Shown: piece by piece, positions 5,481 to 63,457 of the stretch
Layout: each line of letters starts with the position of its first letter
Position numbering within the stretch: position 1 is the first letter of the stretch
Source: Octopus vulgaris
Taxonomy: Eukaryota
NCBI GenBank assembly: GCA_951406725.2
Contig: OX597826.1
Span: forward strand, 27,590,001-27,654,000
Reading direction: 5' to 3'
DNA length: 64,000 nt
Notes under the pieces: model-generated
The model's database searches: none
Told to the model about the DNA's origin: nothing
Seen by the model: only the letters and a program-made list of their open reading frames with translations
Position numbers and translations under genes: made by a program

Positions 5481-5518
<38 letters not shown>

Positions 5519-5631
5519 GTTATTATTGTTATTGTTATTGTTATTATTGTTATTATTGTTATTATTGTTATTGTTGTTGTTGTTGTTGTTGGTATTATTA
5601 TTATTATTGTTATTATTGTTATTATTATTAT

Positions 5632-5710
<79 letters not shown>

Positions 5711-5826
5711 GTTATTATTGTTATTGTTATTGTTATTATTGTTATTATTGTTATTATTGTTATTGTTGTTGTTGTTGTTGGTATTATTATTATTATTGTT
5801 ATTATTGTTATTATTATTATTATTAT

Positions 5827-5914
<88 letters not shown>
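5438..5914. repeat. Compound (TTA/TTG/CTA)n microsatellite with 192-bp higher-order duplication
   Basis: The variant pattern starting at 5518 recurs at 5710. Confidence 0.85.
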
Positions 5915-6974: not shown

Positions 6975-6975
6975 C

Positions 6976-13230: not shown

Positions 13231-13566
13231 TCGCTACCAACAGTTAACGTTAATGTTTATATTATTGTAGTTTAATTTTTTTTCCCATTGGTTTCATAAA
13301 AATTTCTAAACATATATGCAAATTTTGCAGCTTTTGTCATTTAATAAAAAAAAAATGTAATAATGTACAAACAACAAAACAATAAATATAAGAAAAATAA
13401 ATAAATAAACAAGCCAGTATACGAACAAAAGATATAAACAAAAAAAGGTAAAACATGGAATATAAATTAAAAAATAGTTTGGTTTTACGAAATACTCCAT
13501 TCAATAAAATAAATTTAAATCTCCCCCTCGCCCACATGAAAACTTTAATAAAAATACGAACTGATG

Positions 13567-13612
<46 letters not shown>

Positions 13613-13820
13613 AGCACAAGCTGTTATGTATACGCATATATATATATATATATATATACATATATATACATACATCAATATACATATATTTAGTTACATA
13701 TATGTATATATATATGTGTGTGTGTGTGTGTGTATGTGTGTGTATATATGTATGCATATATATGTATAAATATGTATATACATATATATATATATATGTA
13801 TATATATATGTATTTATACA

Positions 13821-13867
<47 letters not shown>

Positions 13868-14482
13868 ATATATATATGCCATACTTATACAGGAAAGATC
13901 AATAAAGAAATGCATAATATAAAAAGACAAATTTTAAAACTGAAAACATTAAAACAATATATACACAGAGAAGCACTCTTGTTAGAAACGCTGCTTTCTG
14001 CGGCCATATTTTATTCTATTTTATTTTATTTTCTGCTGTTTTATTCTATATTATTTGATTTCATTCATTCTTTCTTTCTTTCTTACTTTTTTATCCCTTC
14101 TGTTTTTGTCTTCGGTGCTCTTAGAGAAAGGGAAACGGATAAGATAGAAATATTCTCTTATAAGGCAAGACAAGTATCGGTAGGGTGAGAAGTGGCTGGG
14201 TAAGTAGGTAGGGGTGTGTTCTTGAGAAAATGGCGTCATTCTGGACAGTTCCTTTAAGTCTTTTAATTAAATATTTCATTGTCAAACTTCCAAACCCACC
14301 CTGATCATGGCACACACTGTCGGCTCCGCACTAATATATCCAACGTCACCATTCTACACGCATTTTTATAATTTATTTATTTATTTGTTCATTTATTTTA
14401 ATTTTGGATCTTATTTTTACTTTTATACTATTGTCATTTATATATATCAATTTTATTTTATGTCTGCAACCACCACCACCAA

Positions 14483-14525
<43 letters not shown>

Positions 14526-14629
14526 GCCACCACTACAACAGCAACTACTACTACCAGCGCCACCACCACTACTACTACTATTGCTGCCGTTGCAGCTGCG
14601 GCTGCTGCTACTAATATTTCAACTACTAT

Positions 14630-14663
<34 letters not shown>

Positions 14664-15059
14664 GCTGCTGCTGCTACGACGACGACGACGATGATGACGA
14701 CTACTACTACTATTGCTGCTGCTACTACTGCTGCGGCTATAAACAGAAGGCCACGCGCCACCACTTCCTACATGTTACCACCATTAACGCCAACTCAATT
14801 AAATAACAAGAGTAACTGCCACAACTACAATCATGAACAACACTAACAACAACAACATCAACAATATTGTTATCACAATGATAGCCACCAGCACTACCAC
14901 TACTAATACTATCACCGACACCACCACCCTTACGGAAGCAACCAACACCACGATGACAAACAACAATATCAAAGGACACGACAGCAACAGTAGCGACAAC
15001 ATTAATAATTCCAACATTACACCTCCAGCCTCTGATGCTATACTCATTCACTGTAACCG

Positions 15060-15096
<37 letters not shown>

Positions 15097-15102
15097 GAAA
15101 TA

Positions 15103-15667
15103 TTGGGCTGTCCGGAAAGTTCGCGCCGATTTTTAAAGGAAAGAAATAAGGTCAATAAATACTTGCCATTACATTTTTAATCAACCAAATATGAACTATT
15201 TTGTTGCACGATGCGTCTCCATCTTTCCTTTAACTTAATAATGCCCTCTTCGCAGAGTTGAGGTGGTTTCATGGCAAATAATTCATCAAGGTATCTTTTT
15301 ACGTCATCCAAGGAATTGAAATTTTTACCATTATGACTATTCGGCAGAGACCTGAATAAGTTGAAATCCGAAGGAGCAATATCTGGTGAATATGGAGGGT
15401 ACGGTAACACATCCCAGCCGAGCTGCAGCAATTTTTGTCTGATTCCCAAATCCTCAAGAGCCGAAAATGAACATTCTTATCTTCCATTTTAAAGGGTTAC
15501 AGAATTAACACAGATTATAGGAACTTAAACCTTCTTCCACGAAAAGATAGCTTAAACTGCTCTAAATGGAGGTGTAGTCAAATCCTATTTCATGGACTCA
15601 ACCATGTTCTAAAATATGTTGAAAGGTAAGCTACTATAAATCGGCATGAACTTTCCGGACAACCCAA
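15103..15667 (-). mobile_element. Internally deleted mariner DNA transposon
   Basis: TIRs ttgggctgtccggaaagttc...gccgattt / aaatcggcatgaactttccggacaacccaa, TA on both sides (15101-15102, 15668-15669). N-terminus MEDKNVHFR is joined to the C-terminal LGWDVLPYPPYSPDIAPSDFNLFRSL. Confidence 0.92.
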
Positions 15668-15892
15668 TACTTTTGCTGTTTTCTAAATACCGAGGCTTTT
15701 CTATGTGGTTGCTTGCTTTGCTAGAAATAACAATGAATTTTATGAACTTATAAGTTATAGATACTTTGCACTGAGGCCATGGCCTAAACGACTTTGATCT
15801 TAGGTTTAAGGAGCTTGGAGTGAATACACCGACTACAGCTACAATGCTTCTACTTTACAACAGTAACAACAACAACAACAACAACAATAATA

Positions 15893-16420
15893 ATGGTTTC
15901 ACATTTTGGCACAAGGCCAGCAATTTCGGAGGGAGCATGTTAGGCTATTACATCGGCCCCATTACTCAACTTATTTTTACGAGCCTGGAAAGATGAAAAG
16001 TAAAGTCAACCTCGAAGGAAATTGAACTCAGAACGTAAAGAAAGACGAAATATATCACTAAGCATTTTGTCTGGCATGCTAATAATGATAATAATAAACC
16101 TTTTTTACTATAGGCGCAAGGCCTGGAATTTTAGGATTGAGGTTAAGTCGATTACATCGACCCCAGTGCGTAACTGGTATTTATCTCATTGAACCCGAAA
16201 GAACGAAAGGCAATATCGACATCGGCGAAATTTGAACTCATAACGTAAGGACGGACGAAATGCCGCTAAGCATTATTCCTGGCGTGCTAACGAAACTGCC
16301 AGCTCTCTAATAATAATAATGATGATAATAATGGTTTCAAATTTTGGCACCAGGCCTGCACGTTCGGTGGAGGTGTGAATCGATTACATTGACCTCAGTG
16401 AATAACTGGTACTTATTTCA
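15893..16420 (-). mobile_element. Cluster of three SINE copies (ggcggcgagctggcag family)
   Basis: Reverse complements of the 11450 family, separated by short TAA runs. Confidence 0.75.
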
Positions 16421-21850: not shown

Positions 21851-22078
21851 AGGCGATCTGGCAGAAACGTTAGCACGCCGGGCGAAATGCGTAGCCGTAT
21901 TTCGTCTGCCGTTACGTTCTGAGTTCAAATTCCGCCGAGATCGACTTTGCCTTTCATCATTTCGGGGTCGATTAAATAAGTACCAGTTACGCACTGGGTC
22001 GATATAATCGACTTAATCCGTTTGTCTATCCTTGTTTGTCCTCTCTGTGTTTAGACCCTTGTGGGTAGTAAAGAAATA
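21851..22078 (+). mobile_element. tRNA-derived SINE with LINE-like 3' tail
   Basis: Same head and body as the 11450 family, but ends ccttgtttgtcctctctgtgtttagacccttgtgggtagtaaagaaat. Confidence 0.85.
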
Positions 22079-25890: not shown

Positions 25891-25891
25891 T

Positions 25892-27595
25892 GTTTCTTTA
25901 TTAGCCACACAGGGCTGCACACAGATAGAACAAATTACAAGGTAGAGCTTTTCTTTTGAAGGTAAAAAAAAAAAGAAAAGGGGGGGGGGGCGATCAAAAG
26001 GGATCGTAAAAGGAGAGAAAGAGGACAAAAAAAGGTGGGGGTTAAAAAAAAAATTGATCAATAGGGATCATTATCACAGAAATGTCAATATGAAGTGTAA
26101 AGGGGAGGACAGGTGAGGTTTACCCGTGGAAAGAAAAGCCTACGGAAAAGACCACGGTAACCTCGGTCAATGCAACTCTGTATTAATTAATAAGCAACTC
26201 TGTATTAATTTTTACGGTTCATAGAATCATAGTCAAGGTGGCTTCGTCATTCATACGTGCTATCCTTGCTACATTCACCCATCTTTTTTTAAAACATTCA
26301 CTAGACAAAACTTGCCTCTCTACTCACTTTTTCTTCAAGTGATACTTGAAGAAGTTGATGAGAGATTGACCAGAGAGGAAAGTGTTTGTCTCTAATCCTT
26401 TCAGGCGCGTCCACCAGATACATTCTTTCGCCATAGCCACAAGTATGATAAAAATAGCTCTTCCTTCCCGTTTGAAGGAAGGAGGCGTGACGATATTAAT
26501 GATAGACTCGGCTGATAAACCGACACGTCCCACACGTGACAGCAGTCGTTCGACATAAGCCCACAGGTGGGAAATTGCTGGACACTGCACGATTGCGTGC
26601 AGAGCGGTTTCGTCGCTCTGCCCGCATCTCGGGCAGGTCGGCCCCGTGTTTCTCGAGCCATGCCTATAGAGCTTATCCCCAACGGGTAGCGCTTCTCGGT
26701 AGCACCGCCAGGCCAGGGATCTCTGGAAGTTGTCCATAGGTCCCGGGCCGAAAGTCGTTTGAAACAGGCGGGTCAGGTATTCCTCGTCGACGCCCAGGTT
26801 TGCCCCGAGCTCGTCGTCGTACCTCCCCTCCACTAATCCCCTATAGAATGCTTTGGTTGCGTTGAAGTCACTCAAGGTCGACCCGGGACGGCAGAGTTGC
26901 TTGAGAGCAACGCGACACTCGCGGTGCCATTCGCCCTTCCTCGGCCTCTTTTTGATCCACGACTGTAGTTCGGTCATGGAGACGAGTTGCGGGAATGCGT
27001 GCCTCACAAACGGCGACCACACCTGTTCACCGTCGTCTACATGGAGCCGGAGATGGCGCAGTCTCAGCGCGTGTCTGCGCATCATCAACCACGGCATGCC
27101 CAGCCCTCCTTTTAACGGGTGTTGACAGCAAATGGATCGCCTGACCATCGGGACGCATCCTTTCCACAAGAAGCGGAAGAGGATGCGTTCTAGTTTGGTG
27201 ATGGTAGGGTCGGGACAAGGTACGACGGTCAGGCGGTAGTAGATGATGGACGCGATGTACGCGTTCACCACCTCCGCCCGACCTTTTAGGGACAGTTTCC
27301 TCTCGGCCCATTGCTGGGCGAGAGTGACCACCCTACTCGTTATCTCGTTCCAGTTCTTCTCCATTTGGAGGTCCGGACCGAACCAGACCCCGAGCAACTC
27401 AACCGGGCCGTCTGTCCAGCGTCCCACGACGGAGGTACTGGTAGACGGCATGGGCTTGCTTCTCCAGGTGCCGAGCCATAAGCCCACTGACTTTTCCCGG
27501 TTGATTTTTGCTCCTGTCACCGCTTCGTAGTCTTTCAGTGTCTCGCCGACCCGCTCGATGTGCTCGTGGCTTGACACTATGACGGTGACGTCGCC

Positions 27596-27596
<1 letters not shown>
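25892..27596 (-). mobile_element. 5'-truncated L1/Tx1-type LINE in (GATA)n, subfamily B
   Basis: The 417-aa ORF 26324-27577 is closely similar to the C-terminal third of ORF2 at 42202-45651. Truncated at the YADD motif, small indel near the C-terminus, 3' UTR ending aataaagaaaca. GATA tracts on both sides. Confidence 0.95.
26324..27577 (-). pseudogene. Truncated LINE ORF2 (RT C-terminal region and zinc finger)
   Basis: [39 protein letters not shown]. Confidence 0.9.
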
Positions 27597-27679
<83 letters not shown>

Positions 27680-27680
27680 T

Positions 27681-27727
<47 letters not shown>

Positions 27728-27744
27728 GGATGGATGGATGGATG

Positions 27745-27817
<73 letters not shown>

Positions 27818-27828
27818 CTAGATAGATA
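27597..27828. repeat. (GATA)n microsatellite at LINE 5' junction
   Basis: Seen directly. Confidence 0.95.
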
Positions 27829-28586
27829 GGGCATAGTCATTTCAGAGTGACACTGAGAGAAAAGACGGCACATAATAACATGAAAATGAATGAGAACAGA
27901 ATATTATATTTATGCTAATTTCGAGGAAACAGAAAAAGAAGAGGGAAAGGCAGAGTGCATAATAAAGTGGAGAAGTGAGATAGAACATGATGGTGCTGGT
28001 GATAGAGCGAGAATGTACATGATAATGTGGACAAGAGAGACACGTGACTGAGCATAATAATGTAGAGAAAATAGAGAAAAAGAAATACAATGTATTAATA
28101 TGGGCAATAATGTATGCAGAACATAAATTAACATGAAGCGGTGGGGGTGGGGAGTATGATAATATGGAAAAATAAAAGATGAAACAGAAAATGATAATGT
28201 AGAAATGATGGTAGAGAAAGAAGGTGAGAGAAGCAGAGACAGAGAGACAGAGAGGTAGTGAGAGGGATAGGCAGAAAGAGAGGGAGAGAGAGTTTGAAAG
28301 TTTGAAGGCGGGAAAAGAAAACGGAGCTTGATAACGTGGAGGAGGGAAAAGAGAATATGAAAGAGAAATACGTGATAAGGAAGAGCGAAAATAGCAAGAG
28401 AGAGAGGGAGAGGGGGAGAGAGGGAGAGGGGGAGAGAGGGAGAGAAAGGAGAGAAAGGAGAGAGTGTGTGTGTGAGAGAGAGAGAGAGAGACACACACAC
28501 AGAAAGAGGGACACACACACACAGAAGGAGAGTGAGACACATAAACACAGAGAAAGAGATAGAGAGAGAGATATACGCACACACTC

Positions 28587-28623: not shown

Positions 28624-29237
28624 CACACATAAACAGAAAGAGAGCGAGAGAGAGAGAGGGCTGGTTGATATGATAATGTCGAAAGAAAACCGAGTGGAAC
28701 ATGATAATGTGGCGAGGAGAGATAGAGAGAAATGCAGGAGGAGATAATGTAGGGGACAGATATGATAATGTTGGAAGCTGGTGCATGAAGATGTGGCGGT
28801 GAGCTGCTGCGTGATAATGTAGGGGAAAGAAAGAAATGTGATGTGATGCTTAGAAGAAGGAAAGGAAGAGAAAGATAGACAGAGGATGAGAGCAATAGAG
28901 AAAGAGTAAGAGAAGGGGAAGAAGGCAGAGAGTGAAGAAAGTAAGGGAGAGAGATAAACAGAGAGAGGGAGGGAGAAAGAGAGAGAAATGTTGTGCGTCT
29001 GAGACACACAGCAAGAGAAATAAAGACACCGTGAATCAGTGTTAGCGGGAGAAATATATGTGGAGAGAGAGAGAAAAAGAGAGAAAGAACGTTGATCGTG
29101 TGTGTGCGTCTGTATGTGTGTGTGTGTGTGTGTGGTGGAGTTAAAAAAATAGAGAGAGAGAGAGGGAGAGACAGAGAGAGAAAGAAAGAGAGAGGGAGAA
29201 TTATCGTAATAGAGAGACAGAGAGGCAGAAAGACGAA

Positions 29238-29640
29238 GGGAAGTGGTGCGCTCGTGATAAAGACAGTGACAGAGATACGGACGTTGAGAGAAAAAGATGG
29301 GAAATGAAATTTGTGGATTGAGGGAGAGAGAGAGAGAGGAAGGGAGAAAGAGAGAGAGAGAGAAGGGGTGTTATCGAAACAGATATACAGAGATGGAGAA
29401 AGATGGAGGGAAGTGGTGCGTGCGTGATAAAGACAGTGACAGAGATATAGACATTGGTAGAAAAAGATGGGAAAAGAAATTTGTGGATTGACAGAGAGAA
29501 AGAGAGAGAAAGAGAGAAGAGAGAGAGAGACAAAGAGATGGTATATGTGTGATAAAGGCAGACTTAGAAAGAGAGAGGGAGAGAGAGAGAGACAGAGAGA
29601 CAGAAAGATGGTATATGTGTGATAAAGGCAGACTTAGAAA
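29238..29640. repeat. Short local direct duplications in a GA-rich tract
   Basis: 29238-29320 matches 29408-29491; 29535-29570 matches 29605-29640. Confidence 0.7.
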
Positions 29641-31219: not shown

Positions 31220-31289
31220 CATACATACATACATACATACATACATACATACATACATACATACATACATACATACATAGATATATATA

Positions 31290-31384
31290 TTTCTTTATTA
31301 GCTACACAGGGCTGCACACAGACGGGACAAATTACAAGGTAGAGCTTTTCTTTTTGGGGATAAAAAAGTGGGGTTGGTTTGGTT

Positions 31385-32488: not shown

Positions 32489-33280
32489 TGGTAAAAACGG
32501 TAAGATAACAAAAGAAAGAAAGAGACCTCAATATTATGTACATAGAGGAAATTTATCTATAAAATAATATGACCTTCAATATAGGTAAATATTTCTTAAC
32601 ACTGATAGATAGACATTTTCCAGTTAACCATACTTATAGGAAACTCTTCAATAAACACAATTTAAAAATTAGTTTTAGTTCAACTACCAGTTTTAAAAAT
32701 ATAATCACACATAAAACAAAAAAACTACAACAAGAAAACAGCTGTTCATGCAGGAATAAAAAATTGTGCCCGCTAAATGGAGCTTGCATGTCCGAGACCA
32801 TCATCTATGAAGCTACCGTGGACTCTATAACCACTAAAGACACCGTTTCGACGAAGAAATACGTGGGCCTTACAGAGGGTAATTTCAATGCCAGGTTCAA
32901 TAACCACACCTGGAGTTTTAGGCACTGGAACAAAAGAAAAGCGACAAAATTATCTAATCATATTTGGTCTTTAAAAGATAAGGGTTTTGATTATAACATC
33001 CATTGGAAGATTTTGGCCAAATGTAAGCCCTACACCAACGGCAGCGGAAAGTGCCGTCTATGCGACATGGAGAGAATGCTTATCTAGAAAAGCAGCTTAG
33101 ACCCTACTACATGTCTAAACTCAAGGACAGAACATTTCGGATCATGCCCTCATGTGACAAAATTTTTGTTACGTTTTTGGTCCCCTAAAGAAAACAGATA
33201 GAACTTGCTTTCTATATTATGTCCCAAAAGTTTTTTTTATCTCATTATACATTTTATTATAATATAAGAATGCATATATA
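32489..33280 (+). mobile_element. Penelope-like element 3' fragment encoding a GIY-YIG endonuclease (premature stop at 33087)
   Basis: LFNKHNLKISFS, CSCRNKKLCPLNGAC, IIYEATV...YVGLTEGNFNARFNNH, LSNHIWSLK, CRLC; after the stop the frame continues CLNSRTE...CPHVTKFLL. (TA)n on both sides. Confidence 0.85.
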
Positions 33281-39708: not shown

Positions 39709-39783
<75 letters not shown>

Positions 39784-39786
39784 GTA

Positions 39787-39831
<45 letters not shown>

Positions 39832-39844
39832 GTATGTTTGTCTG

Positions 39845-39877
<33 letters not shown>

Positions 39878-39956
39878 TTATCTATCTATCTATCTGTCTG
39901 TCTGTCTGTCTGTCTGTTTCTCTGTGTGTCTGTCTAACTGTCTGTCTGTCTATCTC

Positions 39957-39995
<39 letters not shown>

Positions 39996-40026
39996 GTCTA
40001 TCTATCTATCTATCTATCTATCTGTA

Positions 40027-40072
<46 letters not shown>
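39709..40072. repeat. (TCTA)n compound microsatellite, 5' flank of full-length LINE
   Basis: Seen directly; contains a variant block that is repeated 3' of the LINE. Confidence 0.95.
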
Positions 40073-40073
<1 letters not shown>

Positions 40074-40382
40074 TGACGGATGTGATGTCGTTTCAGCTCC
40101 GAAGGTAATCATTTATTTTGACTATTTATAGGCCAATTTTTGTGTAGATTTTTGCAAATAAGGTGTGTAAGGCAACCAACTTTCATTTGAGTGCCATTCC
40201 AAGGAGGAATTCGCCCCTAGGGGCAGTTTCGACCCCATTTCATTTCTGTTATTTTCTTCTCGACATTAGAAAATGTCTAGAAATTTTATTGTTGAACGCT
40301 GGTCGCGTTCTTTTTTGGAACAACATTTTCCTAGTCTGGAAACGACAGAGAAAAAAAGAACGTTCGCACGGAAAATGCCAAC

Positions 40383-42122
40383 GTGAAATTCGGTGAAAGG
40401 AACGCTGCAACCACGTGCGTTAACAGCCCTGTCACCAACGCCACCACCACCACTAACAACAGCAACCACGAGACAACAACTGCTACCACCACCACCTCCA
40501 CCACCACCACCACCACTACCACGACCAACATAAATGATAAAAATAAAACTGAAACGAAAACTATTGACAAAAACAACAGCAACAACAAGAACAACAATAA
40601 AAATGAACTATCTAATAGTGAAGATGCTAATACAAAAAAGTCAACAACAGTAAATTTCGCAGATATTCTTCGCCAGAAAAAGGAGATTGTTACATTCACA
40701 AATGAAGAGCTCATAGAAACAAGAGCTCTCTTTACAACCCGTGGACAAGATTTAGTCCTGCATACACCTCAACATATAAAACAAGAAATTGAAAATAAGA
40801 CAATTGTATATAAAATTATTAGAAAAAACAAAAAACCAAATGAACAGATTACAAAAACTGATGTGGAGAAATGTTTAAAAAATATAATGAAAGAAAAAGA
40901 GTATATAAACTGGGGTCCACAGTTTAACACAGTAGTGGTCCGCTTCCCTAACCAGGAAGTGGCAAAAGCTCACTCTACTGAGTCTCTGGGAAATGATGAA
41001 ATCATCATGGTCCCTTATTATAAAAACCAGAGGGTGAGTAGAATTACTATCAGAAATGTACCCCCCGATATGCCGAACAAATGGATAACAGGGGCAATCT
41101 GTTACCACTTGAAAAAGATCAATATTCTAGAAACAGCCGTGTACCTAAACGACAATTGGGGTGGAAAAACAGTAGTTGTGACCATCCAGATTGAGGGGGC
41201 CTCTATCGAGAGCCTACCCGACAAGATATACTTGGAGAATGGGCAATGCCTATATGTTATGGCAGAAGGCAAAAAGCCTAGATGCTACAAATGTGGCAGC
41301 CCCGAACATTTGATTGCCAAGTGCGATCTGGTACAGAAAAAACAAGAAAGAACAATTCAGAAAACAAATAAAATCCCTTTGTTGCCAACACCAACACCAA
41401 CACACTCAATTATGGAACAACGCCAAGAAAAACAACAAACCCCAACAACATCACCAAGAAAAACAGTACCAACACAATCACCGTTGACGTCACAACCAAT
41501 TAAACTTGTTGAATCTTCAAAAAATCGACCCACACCCACACCCAGGACGACAATTAAAAAGACAGAAAACACTGACGAGAAGACAAATGCTACCCCTAAC
41601 ACCACAACAACACAAACACCGCACAAAACATCAACAATTTATACAAGCATACATAGTGATCCTGTTCTTTTTCCTCTACCCCATACTGATACGTCGGACG
41701 ACGAAAGTTCGACGGAATGGCAAATAGCCACAGGGGGTAAAAGAAAAAGATCCAAAAAATCCACCAAACAAGGAATTAAAGCAGGGAGATATCTCACTCA
41801 GGACAACATTCCCCTAGACAATCAAAAAAGTAATGAACCCGTAAAACCACACACACAACTAACTGCAATAGACACAGACAATAAAGAATTAATGGACTAC
41901 ATCAAATCTAACATGGTCGTCTGTGAAGATGATTTTAAGACAAACAACCATCCGCACACCACACCACCGAAACACATCAGAATTTTACACATAACACAAG
42001 CACAACACCACATACTGAAAACATTATTTCCGAATGCGGTAGGCGGGTATCAACGATACCTGTCGAAAAAAACTATACAAACACCTCATCAAAAACGATA
42101 CAAAAGAAGAAGAAAAAAATGA
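40383..42122 (+). CDS. LINE ORF1p, gag-like nucleic-acid-binding protein
   Basis: 579 open codons; RRM-like segment (VVVRFPN...ITIRNVPPD), CX2CX4HX4C knuckle CYKCGSPEHLIAKC, T/P-rich linker, basic C-terminus. Start is uncertain (GTG; the ATG at 40375 is one base out of frame). Confidence 0.85.
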   Translation: MKFGERNAATTCVNSPVTNATTTTNNSNHETTTATTTTSTTTTTTTTTNINDKNKTETKTIDKNNSNNKNNNKNELSNSEDANTKKSTTVNFADILRQKKEIVTFTNEELIETRALFTTRGQDLVLHTPQHIKQEIENKTIVYKIIRKNKKPNEQITKTDVEKCLKNIMKEKEYINWGPQFNTVVVRFPNQEVAKAHSTESLGNDEIIMVPYYKNQRVSRITIRNVPPDMPNKWITGAICYHLKKINILETAVYLNDNWGGKTVVVTIQIEGASIESLPDKIYLENGQCLYVMAEGKKPRCYKCGSPEHLIAKCDLVQKKQERTIQKTNKIPLLPTPTPTHSIMEQRQEKQQTPTTSPRKTVPTQSPLTSQPIKLVESSKNRPTPTPRTTIKKTENTDEKTNATPNTTTTQTPHKTSTIYTSIHSDPVLFPLPHTDTSDDESSTEWQIATGGKRKRSKKSTKQGIKAGRYLTQDNIPLDNQKSNEPVKPHTQLTAIDTDNKELMDYIKSNMVVCEDDFKTNNHPHTTPPKHIRILHITQAQHHILKTLFPNAVGGYQRYLSKKTIQTPHQKRYKRRRKK

Positions 42123-42210
42123 AACTTTTAAAATGAGTAAGTGACCTCACTTCTTGCCTCTTGTCTCTTCTAATATAGTGTGTAAAACACAATTTTCGTA
42201 ATTGTCAAGT

Positions 42211-45200
42211 ATGCTTAAATTAGGTTGTGTGAATGCGCGTGGCTTGGCGTCGGCTTGGAAGCAAGGTTACCTTCTAAACGACATCAAGTCACTGGACGTG
42301 GATATAGTAGCTATCAGCGAAACCAGACTCAGTAAGCCGCGGGCCCTCGAGTCCATGTTTGGCAATCAATTTGACATTTATTTTTCTCCCTGTCTGCCGA
42401 ACATGGGTGGTGGAGGTACTGCGGTGCTTTTTCGAAAGAGTCTAAAGGTAAAAGTAAGAGCAATATTCCTAGACCAGGAGGGTAGGCTGGTTGTCTTGGA
42501 CGTGGATGGCAGAAATGGGTGTGCATTCCGTCTGATGGCAGTTTATGCACCGTCCTTAACGGGTCGGGCGGATTTCTTCAGACGTCTAGAGGTTTTCCTG
42601 GGTACGTCTAGACCTTTACTGTTAGTAGGGGATTGGAACGCTACCTTGGACACGCATCTAGATTATGTGGGAAGGGATAGGAATAGAAGGGGGTGTAAGA
42701 GCCTCAAAGACCTGCTCAGACGTTTTCATTTGTCTGACAGGTTCCGACTCGACCATCCGAACGTGCCAACGTGGACTTGGACAAACCGCGTCGGATCGTC
42801 GAGATCTTATCTAGATAGAATTCTATGCAGGACAGCGGATAGGGATAGTGTAGGATGTCCACAATTTAAAATAGTCAGCTACACAGATCACAAATTTGTT
42901 ACGTGTACGCTCGACTTAGATAAAACACATAGGCAGGGTCCCGGTTACTGGAAACTGAACACGTCGCTGTTAGCGCGACAGGTTTACAGGAACCGGATTA
43001 GCGAGTTAATTAAGAGGGCGCTGACGGGAGCGGTCGTTAACAACCGCTGGTGGTACGCCCTGAAAATGGCAATAAAATCGGAATCAATTAGGTTTAGCAA
43101 GGAATTAGCGATAGAACGAAATAGAGTAGAGGGAGACTTAGTTAAGAAACTAGAAGAGGCACTTACCACTGGCAACGCAACCAACGTGCTAGCTGCGAGG
43201 ATGGCCCTCGACCAACACCTCAACGCCAAGCACGAAGGTTGCGTCGTCAGAGCTAAAATGCGTGCCTTAAGGAACGAAGGGATTGAAGCTGCGCGAGAGG
43301 CCCGGGTAGCGGAGGCGCAGCGTGGCAACAGATCAACCATTCGGTCTCTAATAGATCAACAGGGATGCAGTTTACTCGAACCCGAAAGGATGTGTGAGGC
43401 CTTTCAACAGCACTTTGCTCGACTGTTTGGTGCGAGTGGTGGGTCGGAACGAGGGATGGATTTCAGTGCCTACCTGACCGACCTGCCGCGGCTCTCGGCA
43501 AGAGAGGCGGAGTGTTGTGAAAGTCCCATCACAGCCGCTGACGTGTGGGATGCGATGGCGGGCTGCGCGAGGGATAAGTCGCCTGGATTGGATGGTTTAC
43601 CCTACGAGCTGTATTGTCGAATGCCAGACTTGTTTGGCGACCTCTTGGCATCAGTCTACTGCAACTGGCAACAAAACGGGAGAATCCCCGGTTTCGTGAG
43701 CCGAGGTGCAGTGACGTTGCTGAAGAAAGACTCAAACAAGGGGAATTTTATAGATAATTTCAGGCCCATCACTCTGCTCAACGCAGATTTGAAAATTTTG
43801 GCCAAAGTAATAGCCGAGAGGTTGGCGCTTGTCATTGGTAAACTGGTCGACAGGGCGCAAACATGCGCCGTGCCGGGCAGAACCATACATGACAACCTCC
43901 ATCTGATGCGCTACATTGTGGACAGGGTAGTTAAGGATTCTGGCATGGGTGGGGCGCTGATAAATTTGGATCAGTCTAAAGCCTTCGATAGGGTCGACCA
44001 TCGGTACTTGGCGGCCGTCCTCAGGGCGGCTGGCTTCGGTCCCGTCTTCCGCGGTTGGATCGCTGCCTTGTATAGCGGCATCCGATCGGTGATTCGGGTG
44101 AACGGTCACCTGTCTAAACCGTTTGACATCACGCGTTCGGTCCGTCAGGGGTGTCCCCTGTCGGCGCTTCTGTATGTATTGACTCTCGAGCCGCTACTGC
44201 GGAAGCTGGCGACACTGAGGGGCATCCCACGGGAACTGGGTTGCGGGACGAGCGTGTCGGCATATGCGGACGATGTCACCGTCATAGTGTCGAGCTACCA
44301 GCACATCGAGCTGGTCGGCGAGACACTAAGAAAATATGAAACGGTGACGGGAGCAAAGATTAACCCGGAAAAGTCAGTGGGTTTGCTACTCGGCACCTGG
44401 AGAAGCAAGCCCATGCCGTCCGACTGCGGCTCAGTAGTGGGACGCTGGACGGACGGACCGGTTAAATTGCTCGGGGTCTGGTTCAGTCCGGACCTCCAAA
44501 TGGATAAGAACTGGGACGAGATCACGAGTAGAGTGGTCGCTCTCAGCCAAACATGGGCCGAGAGAAAGCTGTCTCTAAAAGGCCGGGCGGAGGTGGCGAA
44601 CGCGTACATCGCATCCGTCATCGATTACCGCCTGACCGTCGTACCTTGTCCCGACGCCACCATCACCAAACTGGAACGCATACTCTTCCGCTTCCTGTGG
44701 AAGGGTGGCGTTCCGATGGTGAGGAAGTCCATTTGCTGTCAACATCCGTTGAATGGAGGACTGGGCATGCCGTGGTTGATGATGCGCAGGCATGCGCTGA
44801 GACTGCGACATCTCTGGAAATTCATCGACGACGGTGAACAGGTGTGGGCGCCGTTTGTGAGGCGCGACTTCCCGCAGCTCGTCTCACTGACCGAACTGCA
44901 AACGTGGATCAAAAAGAGACCGAAACTGGGCGATTGGCACCGAGAGTGTCGCCAAGCTCTACAGCAGCTCTGCCGACCGGGGTCAAACTTGTGCAACTTC
45001 CAAACGACTAAAGCGTTCTATAGAGGACTAGTGGAGGGGAGGTCCGACGACACACTCGGGGCAAACCTGGGCGTCGACGAGGAATTCCTAACCCGCCTGT
45101 TCAGGACGACGTTCGGGCCGGGGCCTATGGATAACTTCCAGAAATCCCTGGCTTGGCAGTGCTATCGAGACGCACTACCTGTTCGAGAGAAGAGCTACAG

Positions 45201-45651
45201 ACACGGTTCGAAAACCATCACCGGACCGACCTGCCCGAGATGCGGCCAGAGCGACGAAACCGTTCTGCACGCACTCGTGCAGTGTCCAGATATTTCAGAG
45301 CTGTGGTCCTTCGTCGAACAGCTGTTGTCACGTGTAGGTCAGGCTCGCCTATCGGCCGAGTCTATTGTGAATATTGTTCCACCACCTTCCTTTAAACGGG
45401 AAGGGAAAACGGTTTTCGTTACGCTGTTGGCTATGGCGAAAGAATGTGTGTGGTGGACGCGTTTGAAAGGACTGCAAACAAACACCTTCCTCTCTGGTCA
45501 GTCTCTCGTCAACTTTTTCAAGTACCACTTGAAAAGGAGGATGAGAATAGAGAGGAAGGCTTTGTCGAACGAATGTTTTAATAAAAAGTGGGTAAAAGTG
45601 GCAAAAATGGTCAGTATGAAAGACGACACTATTTTAAGCATAAATCTGTAA
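42211..45651 (+). CDS. LINE ORF2p: AP-like endonuclease, reverse transcriptase and C-terminal zinc finger
   Basis: APE motifs VNARGL, ISETR, YAP, GDWN, SYLDRIL, TDH. RT motifs SPGLDG, FRPITLLNADLKI, DQSKAFDRV, VRQGCPLS, YADD. Also GGLG and CPRCGQSDETVLHALVQC. First ATG at 42211. Confidence 0.97.
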   Translation: MLKLGCVNARGLASAWKQGYLLNDIKSLDVDIVAISETRLSKPRALESMFGNQFDIYFSPCLPNMGGGGTAVLFRKSLKVKVRAIFLDQEGRLVVLDVDGRNGCAFRLMAVYAPSLTGRADFFRRLEVFLGTSRPLLLVGDWNATLDTHLDYVGRDRNRRGCKSLKDLLRRFHLSDRFRLDHPNVPTWTWTNRVGSSRSYLDRILCRTADRDSVGCPQFKIVSYTDHKFVTCTLDLDKTHRQGPGYWKLNTSLLARQVYRNRISELIKRALTGAVVNNRWWYALKMAIKSESIRFSKELAIERNRVEGDLVKKLEEALTTGNATNVLAARMALDQHLNAKHEGCVVRAKMRALRNEGIEAAREARVAEAQRGNRSTIRSLIDQQGCSLLEPERMCEAFQQHFARLFGASGGSERGMDFSAYLTDLPRLSAREAECCESPITAADVWDAMAGCARDKSPGLDGLPYELYCRMPDLFGDLLASVYCNWQQNGRIPGFVSRGAVTLLKKDSNKGNFIDNFRPITLLNADLKILAKVIAERLALVIGKLVDRAQTCAVPGRTIHDNLHLMRYIVDRVVKDSGMGGALINLDQSKAFDRVDHRYLAAVLRAAGFGPVFRGWIAALYSGIRSVIRVNGHLSKPFDITRSVRQGCPLSALLYVLTLEPLLRKLATLRGIPRELGCGTSVSAYADDVTVIVSSYQHIELVGETLRKYETVTGAKINPEKSVGLLLGTWRSKPMPSDCGSVVGRWTDGPVKLLGVWFSPDLQMDKNWDEITSRVVALSQTWAERKLSLKGRAEVANAYIASVIDYRLTVVPCPDATITKLERILFRFLWKGGVPMVRKSICCQHPLNGGLGMPWLMMRRHALRLRHLWKFIDDGEQVWAPFVRRDFPQLVSLTELQTWIKKRPKLGDWHRECRQALQQLCRPGSNLCNFQTTKAFYRGLVEGRSDDTLGANLGVDEEFLTRLFRTTFGPGPMDNFQKSLAWQCYRDALPVREKSYRHGSKTITGPTCPRCGQSDETVLHALVQCPDISELWSFVEQLLSRVGQARLSAESIVNIVPPPSFKREGKTVFVTLLAMAKECVWWTRLKGLQTNTFLSGQSLVNFFKYHLKRRMRIERKALSNECFNKKWVKVAKMVSMKDDTILSINL

Positions 45652-45960
45652 CCAAAAGAGACAACGAGAAGTAAGGCGACTTACTCATGTGTTCTTTTTC
45701 GAATTGCCTGAGGTGACCTTGGTCTTTTTTGTAGGTTTTTCTTTCCAAGACTACACCTAAACTGTGAACCTTATATATATATATATATAGTGCTTTTTTA
45801 TACACCACACAACCCACAGATCCCTATTGATCAAACGTTTCCTTTTTTTTTTCTTCTTCTTCTTGCCCCACCCATCCCACCTCGAAAAGAAAAAATTCTA
45901 CATTGTATTTCGTCCATTTTTATTCTGTGTTTAGCCCTGTGTGGCTACAATAAAAAGTTA

Positions 45961-45992
45961 TCTATCTATCTATCTATCTGTATGTTTGTCTG

Positions 45993-46029
<37 letters not shown>

Positions 46030-46108
46030 TTATCTATCTATCTATCTGTCTGTCTGTCTGTCTGTCTGTTTCTCTGTGTGTCTGTCTAACTGTCTGTCTG
46101 TCTATCTC

Positions 46109-46167
<59 letters not shown>
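45961..46167. repeat. (TCTA)n compound microsatellite, 3' flank; duplicate of ~39813-39994
   Basis: Same variant string tgtatgtttg...ttta...(tctg)6 tttctctgtgtgtctgtctaactg...tctc on both sides, differing by one TCTA unit. Confidence 0.92.
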
Positions 46168-46168
<1 letters not shown>

Positions 46169-46224
46169 AATTCTACATTATATTGTCCCCTCTGTATTAA
46201 GCCCAGCGTAACTGAATAAAGAAA
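46168..46224 (+). mobile_element. Old ~57-bp 3' tail of a related LINE in the same TCTA tract
   Basis: aaattctacattatattgtcccctctgtattaagccc...aataaagaaa then tcta; aligns with the LINE tails at 45893-45957 and 63075-63135. Confidence 0.65.
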
Positions 46225-46444: not shown

Positions 46445-46748
46445 GAGAGAACAAGAGAGGTAGGTGTAATACAGACAAAAAGTGAGAGAGAGACAGTGAG
46501 TTATACAGCGCGAGACAACAGCGTGCTGCAGATGAAACGCAGTGTTTGGAAGTTCGTATCAAGTTCCGGATATTGAAATGCATTTTTCATTCATAATACT
46601 TAACTTCACACCTGGTGTTCGTACTCTGTACTCTTAATTAAGTTTATACAAGATCAAATAAAAAAATACCCCACACAACCCCTGTCACAGTCCATTAAAT
46701 GGTAAATGTGTTCTGCTTCATAGACAACAGAATATTCGACCAAATGTA

Positions 46749-46962
46749 AAGGCGGCAAGCTGGCAGAGACGTTAGCACGCCGGGCGAAATGCGTAGCCGT
46801 ATTTCGCCTGCCGTTACGTTCTGAGTTCAAAATCCGCCGAGGTCAACTTTGCCTTTCATCCTTTCGGGGTCGATAAATTAAGTACCATTTACCTACCGGA
46901 GTTGATCTAATCGAGTAGCCTCCTCCCCAAACTTTTCAGGTCTTGTTCCTAGAGCAGAAAAT
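46749..46962 (+). mobile_element. tRNA-derived SINE (ggcggcgagctggcag family)
   Basis: Full head, body and the common tail. Confidence 0.85.
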
Positions 46963-46986
46963 AATAATCGAAAATAATAATAATGC

Positions 46987-47026
<40 letters not shown>

Positions 47027-47037
<11 letters not shown>

Positions 47038-47660
47038 ATCACGCACCTTACGTCGTTTTCAAATAAACACCTGCAACATTTGTCTGTGACATTTCTCATT
47101 CATTTAGGACGAAATTTTATCATCAAATGACCAAACTAAAAACACAGACTTTTAGTGTACTAATTTGTCATACGGAGGCCATGCTGTGGCCGCATGTACT
47201 TGTGATCTATGCTAAAACATCTTGGAAAGTATAAATCAGCCAAAATATTGAAATAACACCGATTCAAATATTTCAGTTAATATTCTTTTCTACCCTAGGC
47301 ACAAGGCCCGACATTTTACAGGGAGGGGGCCAGTTGATTAGATCTACCCCAGTATGCAACTGGTACTTAATTTATCGACCCGAAAAGGATGAAAAGCAAA
47401 GTCGACCTCGGCAGAAATCTCACTTATTATTATTGGCAAATTGAAGATGGCAAGCTGGCAGAATCGTTAGTACGCCGGGCGAAATGCTTAGCGGTATTTC
47501 CTCTGTCTTTACGTTCTGAGTTCAAATTCCGCCGAGGTTGACTTTACATTTCACCCTTTCTGAGTCGATAAATTAAGTACCAGTTGCGTATTGGAGTAGA
47601 TCTATTCGACTAGCCTTCTCGCCAAACATTTCTGTCCTTGTGCCTAGAATCGAAAAGAAT
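47027..47660 (+). repeat. Local segmental duplication, copy 1 (copy 2 at 49251-49880)
   Basis: Non-SINE sequence caccttacgtc.ttttcaaataaacacctgcaac... plus the same back-to-back SINE pair. Confidence 0.9.
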
Positions 47661-47935
47661 AATTGACCATATGTAAGAGTAGATTTGTAGCCGTTCTCCC
47701 TTCAAGAAATAGCAGCCAGATCTCCCTCACTCAATGAAGATCCTATCAACTTATAAAGAACAATATCTTTTAACTTTTAGTGGTGTCGATCATTGGACTT
47801 CGGCCATATTGGATCACCGCCTTGAAGAGTTTAGTCGAGCAAATTAAGTACCAGTTGCGTACTAGGGTCCATATAATCGACTGGGCCCCCTCCCCCAAAA
47901 TTTCGGGTTTTGCACCTAGAATAGAAAAGTATGTG

Positions 47936-49250: not shown

Positions 49251-49262
<12 letters not shown>

Positions 49263-49880
49263 TAATGACCCACCTTACGTCATTTTCAAATAAACACCTG
49301 CAACATTTGGCTGTGACATTTCTCATTCATTTAGACCGAAATTTTATCATCAAATGACCAAACTATAAACACAGACTTTTAGTGTACTAATTTGTCATAC
49401 GGTGGCCAAGCTGGGGCCGCATGTACTTGTGCTCTGTGCTAAGACGTCTTGGAAAGGATAAATCAGCCAAAATATTGAAATAACACCGATTCCAATATTT
49501 CATTTATTATTCTTTTCTACCCTAGGCACAAGGCCCGAAATTTTGCAGCTAAGGGGCCAGTCGATTAGATCTACCCCAGTATGCAACTGGTACTTAATTT
49601 ATCGACCTTTCAAAGGATGAAAGGCAAAGTCGACCTCGGCAGAAATCTCACTTATTATTATTGACAAACTGAAGGTAGCAAGCTGGCAGAATCGTTAGTA
49701 CGCCAGGCAAAATGCTTGTCTGCCGATACGTTCTGAGTTCAAATTCCGCCGAGGTCAACATTGCATTTCATCCTTTCTGAGTCGATGAATTAAGTACCAA
49801 TTGCGTACTGAGGTCGATCTAATCGACTGCCCCCCCCTCCCCCAAAATTTGGAGCCTTGTGCCTAGAGTAGAAAAGAATC
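49251..49880 (+). repeat. Local segmental duplication, copy 2
   Basis: Matches 47027-47660 with scattered substitutions. Confidence 0.9.
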
Positions 49881-50580
49881 GTTAGCACGCCGGACAGAAT
49901 GCTTATCGGCATTTCGCCCGTCATTACGTTCTGATTTCAAATTCCTCCGAGGTCGACTTTACCCTTCATCCTTCGGGGTAGATAAAATGAGTACCAGTTG
50001 AACACTGGGTTCGATGCAGTCTACTAACCTTCTCTCAAATTTCAGGCCCTGTGCATATAGTAGAAAGGATTATTATTGGCAAACTGGTAAAATCGATAGA
50101 GCATCGAAAAAATGTCTTGTGATATTTTTCTGGATCCTAAAATTCTGAGTTCGTTTCCCCTTTGTGTTAACTTCGCTTTTATCTCTCAAGGTTCGATAAA
50201 ATAAATATGCCAGTGAAATCAGTGCAATTAGCTAACTTCTTCCCCTCCAAATTGTCGGATTTAGCTGGATATCTTTGGGTTCTTTATATTCTGGGTTGAA
50301 ATTCCGACGAGTTCCACTTTACCATTCATCTTTTGGGTTCGACAGGCCCTGTGCCAATAGTAGAAAGATATTATTTTCAAGCTTTTGCACAAGGCCAGCA
50401 ATTTCAGGAAAGAGGTAAGTCGATTTTATCAACCTCAGTGTTCAACTAATTTTATGGGCCTTGATAGAATGGAAGAAAAGGTCTACCTCGGCGGCATTTC
50501 AGTACAGAATGTAAAGACAGACGATATGTCACAAAAGCATTTTGCCAAGCGGGCTAACGATTTTGCCAGCTTGTCCCCTT
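49878..50580. mobile_element. Cluster of about four further SINE copies
   Basis: Repeated gttctgagttcaaattcc / cctttcatcc..ggggtcgataaa motifs on both strands. Confidence 0.7.
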
Positions 50581-53381: not shown

Positions 53382-53457
<76 letters not shown>

Positions 53458-53615
53458 AATTAAGGACTGAACACGAAAAAGTGGACAGTCAACATGCTAG
53501 ATATAGACGTCAAATCGCCATTCTCCACAAAGATTTTGTTCTCAAATAAAATAAAATTCAGCACGACCTAAAGCAATAGATAAGACAAAAGAAATATACG
53601 AAATGGAATAATCAC

Positions 53616-53677
53616 CTGCGTACCGAACGGTTTCAGCTATTAATATCACAAGGATATCTGTAGCTTCGTCAGCGCAG
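53616..53677 (-). ncRNA. Type I hammerhead ribozyme, copy 1
   Basis: Minus strand ctgcg-CTGACGA-agctacagatatccttgtgatattaatagct-GAAA-ccgttcg-GTA-cgcag; all three stems pair. Confidence 0.88.
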
Positions 53678-54122
53678 TTTGTTATGAGCATAATATGCTG
53701 TGCTAGATGAAAAACAGTACCGGAGTCCCATATGCAAAAAGTACAACCTATTAAGTTCGGATGTATCTTTCAAATGCCTTTACTTTTGGCGCGCTGAGAC
53801 TCGAAAAACCAGCCTGCAGCTAATAATTAGCAGCAGTCAATTTATCGGTTTGAGAACATATATTTCATATTTAAAAATTAAGGGTAAAAATTGATATTAG
53901 TCAATTAAAACCAGTGGTCTAGCACATTAAAAAGAATCCGAAGATTAAAATATTTATATATACCAATTAAGGACTGAACACGAAAAAGTGGACAGTCAAC
54001 ATGCTAGATATAGACGTCAAATCGCCATTCTTCACAAAGATTTTGTTCTCAAATAAAATAAAATTCAGCACGACCTAAAGCAATAGATAAGACAAAAGAA
54101 ATATACGAAATGGAATAATCAC

Positions 54123-54184
54123 CTGCGTACCGAACGGTTTCAGCTATTAATATCACAAGGATATCTGTAGCTTCGTCAGCGCAG
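54123..54184 (-). ncRNA. Type I hammerhead ribozyme, copy 2
   Basis: Identical to 53616-53677, 507 bp away. Confidence 0.88.
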
Positions 54185-54446
54185 TTTGTTATGAGCATAA
54201 TATGCTGTACTAGATGAAAAACGGTACCGGAGTCCCGTATGCAAAAAGTACAACCTATTAAATTCGGATGTACTTTAATTTCCTTTATATTTAAGATTCA
54301 CTATTAATATCCCTACTCTTTCTGTTAGCTACTTATGACGTTATATCATATAACATTTTTTTAAACTATTAATAGCGTTCTGTCTATCGCTATACAAATC
54401 CATCATTTTTTGCTAAAATGTCTTATTGACGAGTTTGGTTTTTTTC

Positions 54447-57718: not shown

Positions 57719-58200
57719 TTATACACCAGCGTTTGGTTTCTTTTCTACATTATTTATGAAGCAGCCATTGTTACCAGAGATTTCAAACCAACTCGATTCC
57801 GGATCACAAAAGGAACCGAGTTTCTCTTTGAACTTTCGTGAAAAGCCAATTTTACAGATGGTCTCACTAAGGAAATGCTTTATGCAATGATGATAATGCA
57901 AAAGTTAGGCTTCTGCCCGCTACGTGAGTGTTTCTGAGTGTGTGTGTGTGTGAGTATATAGACACACACATATATATATATGTGTGTGTGTGTGTGTGTA
58001 TATATACACACAGATACACAAATATATGTATATGTATTTATGCATAAACATACATATATGTATATTTATGTATATTTGGGTGTATATATATGTATATATA
58101 TATACATACATATATATACATGCACAAATATATGTATATGTATTTATGCATAAACTTATACATATATGTATGTTTATGTATATCTGTGTATATGAATATA

Positions 58201-58244
<44 letters not shown>

Positions 58245-59019: not shown

Positions 59020-60400
59020 TTAATTTGTGTGATTCAGGAACTGGGATATTCCGACTAAATATTTTGCAGTATTTTTCCGACTGTACAGTCGACAGATCAA
59101 ATCCTGCCGAAGTCGAGTTTAAGTTTGATACCACACCGGTCGTTAAAATCAAGTACCTTTTGAGGACGATGTAATCGAATAGCACCATTCCTTTCAAAAT
59201 GTTTTCCCTTGTGTCTAAATAGCAAAAAATAGCTCCGTGAACTGGGAGACCGTTATTGATATGGAGAAAACACTTTGCTCTGTTTGAATCGTCTCTCTAC
59301 TTTCTGAGTTCGAATTCCGTCGAAGTCACTTTTACCTTTCATTCTACAGGTATCAGTCAAGTATTAGCATCGGGATAGCCGTCTTTAAACCAAACTTGAA
59401 ATTATTATGATAGTAAATAAAATATTCTATCGGTACTTTTTGCCAGCCTTTACGTTACGGGGACATCATCAAACTAACACCGGTTCCATTTAAGTATTGG
59501 TATTGGTGATGGCGACTAAACCCTCGCCTTACATAGCTGGCCTTTTGCTAAATTTTAAATCAAGATGGTAACCTCACAGACTCGTTAACGCGTCGGACAA
59601 AATTTTTATCAGCATTGCTTCCGGTTCTTAGCATTCTCCATTCAAAAACCGCCGAAATCACTTTCAGCTTTTCATCCTAATACGGTCGATAAAGTGAAGT
59701 ACTTGTCAGGTATTCTTTTCTTATTTCTTTACTGCCCACAAGGGTTTACACACAGAGGGGGACAAATAAGGACAGACAAACGGATTAAGTCGATTATATC
59801 GACTCCAGTGCGACTCCCGAAAGGATGAAAGGCAAAGTCAAACTCGGCGGAATTTGAACTGAGAACGTAGGGGCAGACGAAATACCAATTTCTTTACTGC
59901 CCACAAGGGGCTACACACAAAGGGGACAAACAAGGACAGACAAACGGCTTAAGTCGATTATTTCGACCCCAGTGTGTAACTGGTACTTATTTAATCGACC
60001 CCGAAATAATGAAAGGCAAAGTTGACCTCGGTGGAATTTGAACTCAGAACGTAGCGGCAGACAAAATACGCTAAGCATTTCGCCCGGCGTGCTAACGTTT
60101 CTGCCAGCTCGCCGCTTTAGGCACAAGGCCCTCCCCAACATTTCAGGCTTTGTGCCTATAATATTATTAAGGCGACGAGATGGTAGACTCGGTAGAGCGT
60201 CGAAACATTTTTACTTATTTATTTATTTTCTTTTTTTTTTGCGGTCTTTACTCCGACACTTTACATTCTGAGTTCAAATCTTGCCTGGGTCATTTCGCGC
60301 ATGTTATCCTACCAGTGTTGATAAAATAATCGAGCTATCAAATCAAATCGAGAGATTGATAGTGTCGAACAACCCCTGATCCGCTCCTTCAACCACACCC
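59020..60400. mobile_element. SINE cluster including two minus-strand copies with LINE-like tails (59724-59886, 59888-60118)
   Basis: tttctttactgcccacaagggg(c/t)tacacac...ggacaaa ends; degenerate plus-strand copies on either side. Confidence 0.8.
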
Positions 60401-62318: not shown

Positions 62319-62426
62319 ATATAAAGATACCCCACGGTTGTGTATGTGGGAGTGTTTGTGTAAACATAAATATGCATCTATCTAACTATCTATATCTATC
62401 TATCTATCTATTTATCTATCTATCTG

Positions 62427-62495
<69 letters not shown>

Positions 62496-62509
62496 TTGTC
62501 TATCTATCT

Positions 62510-63135
62510 GTGGCTATGGCGAAAGAGTGTATCTGGTGGACGCGTCTGAAAGGATTGGAGACAAGCACTTTCCTCTCTGATCAACCTCTCATCAAATTCT
62601 TCAAGTACCACTTGAAAAGGAAAGTGAGAGTAGAGAGGCAAGTTTTGTCTAGCGAACGTTTTAAAAAAGATGGGTGAATGTAGCAAGGATGGCACGTATG
62701 AATGACAAAGCCACCTTGAGCATAATCCTATGAACCCAGAAATTGAAAACAGAGGGTTACCCACTTGCAAACAAATGTGGTAACATATAACAATATTGAC
62801 CAAGGTTAAGGTGGTCTTTTTCGTAGGCTTTTCTTCCCACGGATAAACCTTACTTGCTTTCCCCTTTACATCATACATCATGACACTGTGATACACGATC
62901 CCTATTGATCGTTTTTTTCCTCTTTTTTCTTCTTTTTTCATTTTTCTTTTCTTTTGTTCCTTTTCCCTTTTTCATTTTTTCTTTTCCTTTTTTTCTTTTT
63001 TTTGTTCTTTTTTCCCTTTTACGATCCCTTTTGATCGAAAACCTACGCCACCTTTTTTTTTCTCCCCCAAAAGAAAAGCTCTACCTTGTAACTTGTCCCA
63101 TCTGTGTGCAGCCCTGTGTGTCCAATAAATAAACT
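62510..63135 (+). mobile_element. 5'-truncated L1/Tx1-type LINE in (TCTA)n, subfamily B
   Basis: AMAKECIWWTRLKGLETSTFLS...FFKYHLKRK plus a 3' UTR matching 25892-26220; TCTA at both junctions. Confidence 0.93.
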
Positions 63136-63457
63136 TATCTATCTATCTATATCTATATCTATCTATATATATATATATAAACATACACATACGCATACAT
63201 ATGTATGTACTCATGTGTGTGCGACTTTATGTCTGTGTTTGTCCTCCCACCATCACTTGACAACTGATGGTGGTGTGTTTACGTCCCCGTAACTTAGCAG
63301 TTCGGCAAAAGAACCCGATGGAATAAGTACTACACTTACAAACAATAAGTCGTGTAGTCGATTTCTTCGACTAAAAATCAATTTAAGGCGGTGCTCCAGC
63401 TTGGCCGCAATCATTTGATTGAAACAATAAATAGAATAAAATTATGCACATATATAC

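Follow-up and report, generated by a model that had tools for sequence, protein, structure and literature searches.

A duplicated TCTA array around an L1/Tx1-type LINE in Octopus vulgaris: probable repeat-mediated tandem duplication at a member of a family that appears to target TCTA repeats

A stretch of 64,000 nucleotides from Octopus vulgaris (contig OX597826.1 of assembly GCA_951406725.2, positions 27,590,001 to 27,654,000; hereafter the window) consists of animal DNA rich in simple repeats and carries a 5888-bp long interspersed nuclear element (LINE) at 40073-45960, flanked by two TCTA arrays. A compound TCTA array is duplicated around this LINE, and this duplication is real in the sequence. 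We favor the explanation that the array was doubled by a repeat-mediated tandem duplication, before or after insertion of the LINE with a target-site duplication (TSD) of about 20 bp (probability roughly 0.6). The weights given to this explanation and to its competitors are our judgement from the counts reported below.

Reading the arrays unit by unit confirms the layout A-B-A-[LINE]-B described in the original prediction, where A is a short block that opens with variant units and B is a longer variant string. Block A is found twice, at 39781 and 40021, 240 bp apart. The B string is also found twice, on either side of the LINE, with zero substitutions; the sole difference is a TCTA run of 8 units on the left versus 9 on the right. 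The locus is organized as follows (positions in the window, all on the + strand).

39709..39780, +, leading pure run of 18 TCTA units
39781..39828, +, block A, first copy: two variant units and 10 TCTA units
39829..39956, +, B string, left copy, 128 bp
39957..40020, +, duplication junction run of 16 units, with a TCTG at 39993 that is absent from both bounding runs
40021..40072, +, block A, second copy: two variant units and 11 TCTA units, interrupted by the LINE
40073..45960, +, L1/Tx1-type LINE, apparently full-length, 5888 bp, ending in AATAAA and a few bases, without poly(A)
45961..45976, +, 4 TCTA units, what is left of the A run after the interruption; a classical TSD would be at most 16-19 bp
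45977..46108, +, B string, right copy, 132 bp, one TCTA unit longer, no substitution
46109..46168, +, trailing pure run of 15 TCTA units

Two features come in addition to the original prediction. The 16-unit run that separates B from the second A carries one additional TCTG, and the right array is immediately followed by 56 bp of a decayed 3' end that belongs to the same LINE family (46169-46224).

When the LINE is skipped, an alignment of the 240-bp and 260-bp units gives 236 identities and 28 gap columns, without any mismatch. The gaps correspond to five units at the insertion (11 + 4 versus 10), to the lone TCTG and to a slipped unit in B. The two copies thus lie head to tail with a period of 240 bp, and the runs that bound them count 18, 16 (including one variant unit) and 15 units. 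When the arrays are aligned locally, 39811-40016 pairs with 45959-46168; a single 4-base gap interrupts the match, and the lone TCTG (39993-39996) is the only mismatch. Chance similarity of low-complexity sequences could be suspected, given that the two arrays are composed of simple repeats and that short tandem repeats, masked at a low score threshold, account for 21% of the window; B could also have been brought from elsewhere by 3' transduction. Both explanations are highly improbable. The 22-run string that recurs once the LINE is skipped was reached by none of 2000 shuffles of the variant runs, and on both strands of the window the markers occur at just two places each (the 16-base marker of A at 39777 and 40017, the 16-base start of B at 39829 and 45977). 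Chance similarity was therefore rejected. So was 3' transduction, since B also lies just upstream of the same insertion, a sequence that a transduced tail would not match.

A very long TSD had been proposed for this locus. In its plain form, with one target sequence abutting both ends of the LINE, this proposal does not hold: the left copy ends differently at the LINE, and the longest exact repeat that abuts both ends, bounded by markers, is 19 bp. The left B is separated from the LINE by 116 bp, which include three variant units (markers 39993 and 40021-40028) that have no counterpart on the right. L1 usually generates TSDs of 5-30 bp (PMC5223499), and therefore the approximately 20 bp gained at the insertion fit the usual range. 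In HeLa cells, at most 10% of L1 TSDs were longer than 100 bp (PMC5223499), and a long TSD was found at one of 25 ZfL2-2 insertions (PMC2666801). For a long TSD to hold here, a template jump or a subsequent deletion of 56 bp would have to be assumed as well.

Insertion and duplication may nevertheless have been coupled, which we consider possible but rather unlikely. A first nick would have fallen in the A run and a second about 200 bp downstream in the trailing run, so that the insertion itself would double the array. Either the end of the cDNA would then have jumped to the upstream target, copied A and re-annealed out of register, or a 260-bp TSD would later have lost 56 bp on its right side. 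Several facts argue for such a coupling. The LINE and the duplication are found together and both appear recent, B was copied without substitution right after the 3' junction, and long TSDs are on record for both L1 (PMC5223499) and ZfL2-2 (PMC2666801). Furthermore, the rotifer element R9, as stated in the title of its paper, makes exceptionally long TSDs. The geometry argues in the other direction, since with a 19-bp repeat at the ends of the LINE this explanation needs a second unusual step, and in addition the lone TCTG and the slipped unit. Tandem duplication is favored because of this geometry.

According to the explanation that we favor, a TCTA-preferring L1/Tx1-type LINE would have entered the 10-unit TCTA run of a block A by target-primed reverse transcription, adding about five units (TSD or tail, up to about 20 bp). 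The compound array would have been doubled head to tail, with its period of 240 bp, via misalignment of the trailing and leading pure TCTA runs during unequal exchange, slippage or repair. Two orders of events can be considered: (i) A-B-A-B may have formed first, the LINE then entering the second A or (ii) an allele without the LINE (A-B) may have exchanged out of register with one that contains it (A-[LINE]-B). In the second case, the lone TCTG and the slipped unit would be allelic differences. We infer both the misalignment and the timing of the events. A tandem A-B duplication prior to the insertion was the other possibility raised in the original prediction. That it is separate from the insertion is supported by the 240-bp period, by the approximately 20 bp at the insertion and by a LINE-free twin elsewhere in the window; it may have preceded or followed the insertion.

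This twin was found among 27 tracts of at least 150 bp, of which four next to copies of the LINE family were set aside, leaving 23 LINE-free tracts (the shuffle p-values below are uncorrected for the 27 tracts). It lies in a TTA array (5439-5914).

5517..5912, +, LINE-free control: 192-bp head-to-tail duplication of a variant string in the TTA array

Pure TTA runs of 11, 13 and 14 units surround the two copies, which share 189 identities with 0 mismatches and differ in run lengths, and no LINE match was detected nearby at E<0.1. Moreover, tracts 983, 12548 and 58022 contain shorter or older higher-order repeats (uncorrected p <=0.02); the older LINE-free repeats include 58022-58235 (period 106) and 12648-12964 (period 84). 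The control and these older repeats indicate that such duplication of arrays occurs in this genome, or else in this assembly, without a retroelement. The same layout present without a LINE also argues against a coupling of duplication and insertion. A further higher-order repeat, with a period of 170, was observed inside or among simple repeats at 29152-29538.

An assembly artefact would also account for the locus. If the animal were heterozygous for A-B and A-[LINE]-B, a haplotype switch inside the TCTA run would write both paths in tandem. Two alleles would be expected to differ as these copies do, in run lengths and by one variant unit. The single-base differences found in A runs of the LINE copy could be consensus errors, and a haplotype switch would also yield the control duplication. 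However, the window does not contain any N, a 5.9-kb high-copy element is resolved with its flanks and ORF2 is open over 3.4 kb, which suggests that accurate long reads span the locus. We therefore consider such a mosaic improbable.

The LINE encodes two open reading frames (ORFs), the second of which includes an apurinic/apyrimidinic-type endonuclease (APE) and a reverse transcriptase (RT).

40383..42122, +, ORF1 frame, 579 aa, CCHC knuckle at residue 301, no Pfam match
42211..45651, +, ORF2, intact, 1146 aa: APE endonuclease, reverse transcriptase (YADD at 685), C-terminal zinc motif

The frame starting from the ATG at 40273 ends after 37 codons. Single-base differences from other copies lie in two A runs (40350 and 42066) and ORF1 is out of frame near its start; these differences could be mutations or consensus errors. 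ORF2 matches the Pfam domains PF03372, PF00078 and PF13966, and its best solved-structure match is human L1 ORF2p (E 2e-58, residues 6-871). The element has the features of the L1 group of non-LTR (long terminal repeat) elements: APE, RT and a C-terminal zinc motif in ORF2, two ORFs, and truncated copies with a common 3' end. Its closest named match is a cuttlefish protein (52% identity), the only named one among the best 120 RT-region matches. No relative was found in the viral sequence collection, and the ESM Atlas returned just unnamed L1-like clusters. In a quick RT tree (45 rows, no named reference), the ORF2 of the window and a U2-flanked Keno-like group (L006/L008) from metagenome data meet only at an open node (support 94). 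The LINE is likely to belong to the Tx1 clade. Active L1-Tx1 families have been reported in an octopus genome, the accessible part of the report giving no target (PMC13282606).

Four other copies of the family were detected in the window.

25891..27596, -, 5'-truncated copy between TCTA arrays, 80% to the full copy
31289..31384, -, short 3' stub, 16 TCTA units at its 5' junction
46169..46224, +, decayed 56-bp 3' end of an older copy; global score 60 versus 41-44 for the best of 500 shuffles
62511..63137, +, 5'-truncated copy between TCTA arrays; marker-bounded repeat of 11 bp

These four truncated copies share their 3' end with the full copy, and the 3' ends of all five consist of AATAAA and a few bases, without poly(A). 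A TCTA run lies at the 5' junction of every copy (5/5 in this one window, two of them sharing one array), although such runs make up 1.7% of the window. In PMC4494074, a target is recognized when one repeat type is found in more than 20% of the flanks; TCTA runs at the 5' junction of five of five copies exceed this share, in one window only. Since the 5' junctions of the truncated copies lie at differing positions of the element, the TCTA runs would be a target and not just a tail. The endonuclease may drive the targeting of TCTA. The Tx1-clade elements Kibi and Koshi target (TC)n and (TTC)n, respectively, in teleosts, and crocodilian Tx1 families target (TTCC)n and (TTTC)n, according to the accessible parts of PMC4494074 and PMC3812793. 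The octopus family looks like a TCTA-targeting counterpart of Kibi and Koshi.

The family is abundant in all four public runs compared, with 8198 to 16068 contigs per run and 30 of 30 bins covered, figures that reflect depth and not copy number. This comparison used the LINE body and 32 bases of 3' flank; positions 45949-45992 were skipped as repeat, and no listed piece bridged the junction. The family is high-copy and apparently recently active. A search of the literature by title and start of abstract found no TCTA/TATC-targeting element or Tx1 target in cephalopods; Repbase reports, subscription journals and supplements lay outside its scope and may already describe the family. As far as these searches reached, the TCTA target extends the list of targets of microsatellite-specific APE elements.

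The other copies bear on the original prediction that each insertion expands its own target and that repeat variants can be used to measure TSD length elsewhere. The longest exact repeats abutting both ends are of unequal information: 11 bp at the 62511 copy, which is bounded by a marker, is informative and argues against coupling; 58 bp at the 25891 copy, a pure run that gives an upper bound; and 7 and 5 bp at the decayed stubs. A long flanking duplication is found at none of the four, of which one has markers close enough to be informative, and the general expansion is not borne out. By contrast, the 5' TCTA array exceeds the 3' array at four of the five copies (39709-40072, 27597-27829, 62380-62510 and 45961-46168; the comparison is ambiguous for the 31289 stub, and one array is common to two copies), in keeping with insertion-coupled duplication, although the longer 5' arrays could also have arisen by growth of the repeat at that junction. 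A more general proposal, that integration of this Tx1-like TCTA family sometimes resolves out of register through a distant second nick and a template jump, so that hundreds of bases are duplicated and the 5' array becomes longer, appears doubtful to us.

One distant relative in metagenome data, L120, provides a possible precedent for coupling. Eighty metagenome loci were retained (distant, mostly 22-35% identity, many contigs ending at the element), to which L118 and L120 were added; a flanking direct repeat is found in four of these 82 loci (L034, L035, L053 and L120). The Tx1-like L120, which shares 27% ORF2 identity with the octopus LINE and lies in host DNA in a metagenome-assembled genome (element 3036-10170 of G001:C99), is inserted about 35 nt into a U1 small nuclear RNA (snRNA) gene. 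It is flanked by two 163-bp direct copies that differ by one mismatch, and a whole U1 gene remains upstream. The contig also carries a U1 unit without an element, which matches only 158 of the 163 bases because both flanking copies have in common a base that it lacks. Because of an apparent deletion after the right-hand repeat and because the copy is single, the full length of the duplication is uncertain (at least 163 bp). However, L120 is distant from the octopus LINE, and the quick RT tree joins it to the ORF2 of the window only at the open node (support 94).

The nearest relatives with flanks, L081-L121 except L118 and L120 (41-43% ORF2 identity), show just short variable junction repeats by eye, which also weighs against coupling. 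They form long head-to-tail arrays with a period of mostly 6.4-6.8 kb, in which neighbours are often more than 99% alike, and they have no microsatellite target. Their contigs come from a genome labelled as a bacterium and are probably animal DNA. Among 20 of the 80 metagenome loci that were scanned, U1 adjoins the end of L019 (9202-9356), which is not close to L120 in the quick tree, and U2 adjoins the Keno-like L006 (5815-5977) and L008 (4675-4885). Within its accessible part, PMC4640811 gives only Dada-U1 as targeting U1. A U1-targeting Tx1 element with a long duplication, such as L120 (one copy), may be undescribed. As a separate observation, L034 and L035 carry 123-175-bp repeats at both contig ends, the L034 repeat being itself tandem; these are possibly elements in a satellite.

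Several points weigh against a repeat-mediated tandem duplication. Both events look young (intact ORF2, B copies without substitution), and their co-occurrence would be a coincidence. The lone TCTG needs its own substitution or an allelic difference. A fresh duplication of this size is found in just one of the 23 LINE-free tracts, i.e. about as rarely as long TSDs in assays, and the control could itself be an assembly mosaic. The four other copies consist of two decayed stubs, one copy with a pure 58-bp right run and one informative copy. The longer 5' arrays and the duplication of at least 163 bp at the insertion of L120, which is real even if L120 is distant, also belong here, and the structure at the junctions is known from the assembly alone. 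Moreover, sequencing the empty allele, as proposed in the original prediction, would be indecisive on its own since an A-B empty allele is expected under insertion-coupled duplication, under exchange after insertion and under joined haplotypes.

Comparison with known systems places the LINE and the array separately. Like Kibi, Koshi and the crocodilian Tx1 families, the octopus LINE is an APE-type non-LTR element that inserts into microsatellites; unlike them, its target is TCTA/TAGA, which lies outside the targets stated in the accessible parts of the papers (the elements being compared by description and not by sequence). As in human L1, it has an APE-RT-zinc architecture, and a duplication of 16-20 bp fits the 5-30 bp given for L1 in PMC5223499. 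It differs from human L1 in the absence of poly(A) at any of the five 3' ends, in its microsatellite target and in the CCHC knuckle of ORF1.

As in long-TSD insertions (rotifer R9, L1 in cells deficient in nucleotide excision repair, rare ZfL2-2 events), target sequence exceeding 100 bp flanks the element on each side. However, the TSD of these insertions abuts both ends, whereas here 116 bp with markers missing on the right lie between B and the LINE. R9 reportedly encodes a restriction-like endonuclease and makes a 126-bp duplication. Higher-order tandem duplications are known to occur inside compound microsatellites, among short tandem repeats and variable number tandem repeats. The octopus array resembles these in its head-to-tail copies, which have the same bounding pure run and differ in run lengths only, but a 5.9-kb LINE interrupts one of the copies.

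The window also contains other repeats and ORFs. A non-repetitive stretch of 327 bp (53456-53782) is repeated 507 bp later (53963-54287) with 97% identity, both copies starting after TA-rich sequence. An ORF of 172 aa at 32569-33087 has no Pfam match; we assume that it resembles the GIY-YIG end of a Penelope-like element. Furthermore, a dispersed repeat family of about 160-230 bp, similar in size to short interspersed nuclear elements, has many copies on both strands (11451-11847, 15888-16305, 21852-22078, 46741-47932, 49257-50204 and 59723-60119).

If the array was doubled by repeat-mediated duplication, as we favor, the duplication is ordinary repeat turnover, and a LINE family that appears to target TCTA remains as the result. 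In addition, before repeats around an element in a microsatellite are taken for TSDs, one has to confirm that they reach both of its ends. If insertion and duplication were instead coupled, the variant units would serve, over many copies in the genome, as a built-in scale for second-strand nicking and 5' joining, which is the least understood step in LINE integration. If integration does resolve out of register, the 163-bp duplication of L120 would show that long duplications recur in the clade. In that case, the element would enlarge its own target space and would help to build the long compound microsatellites of its host.

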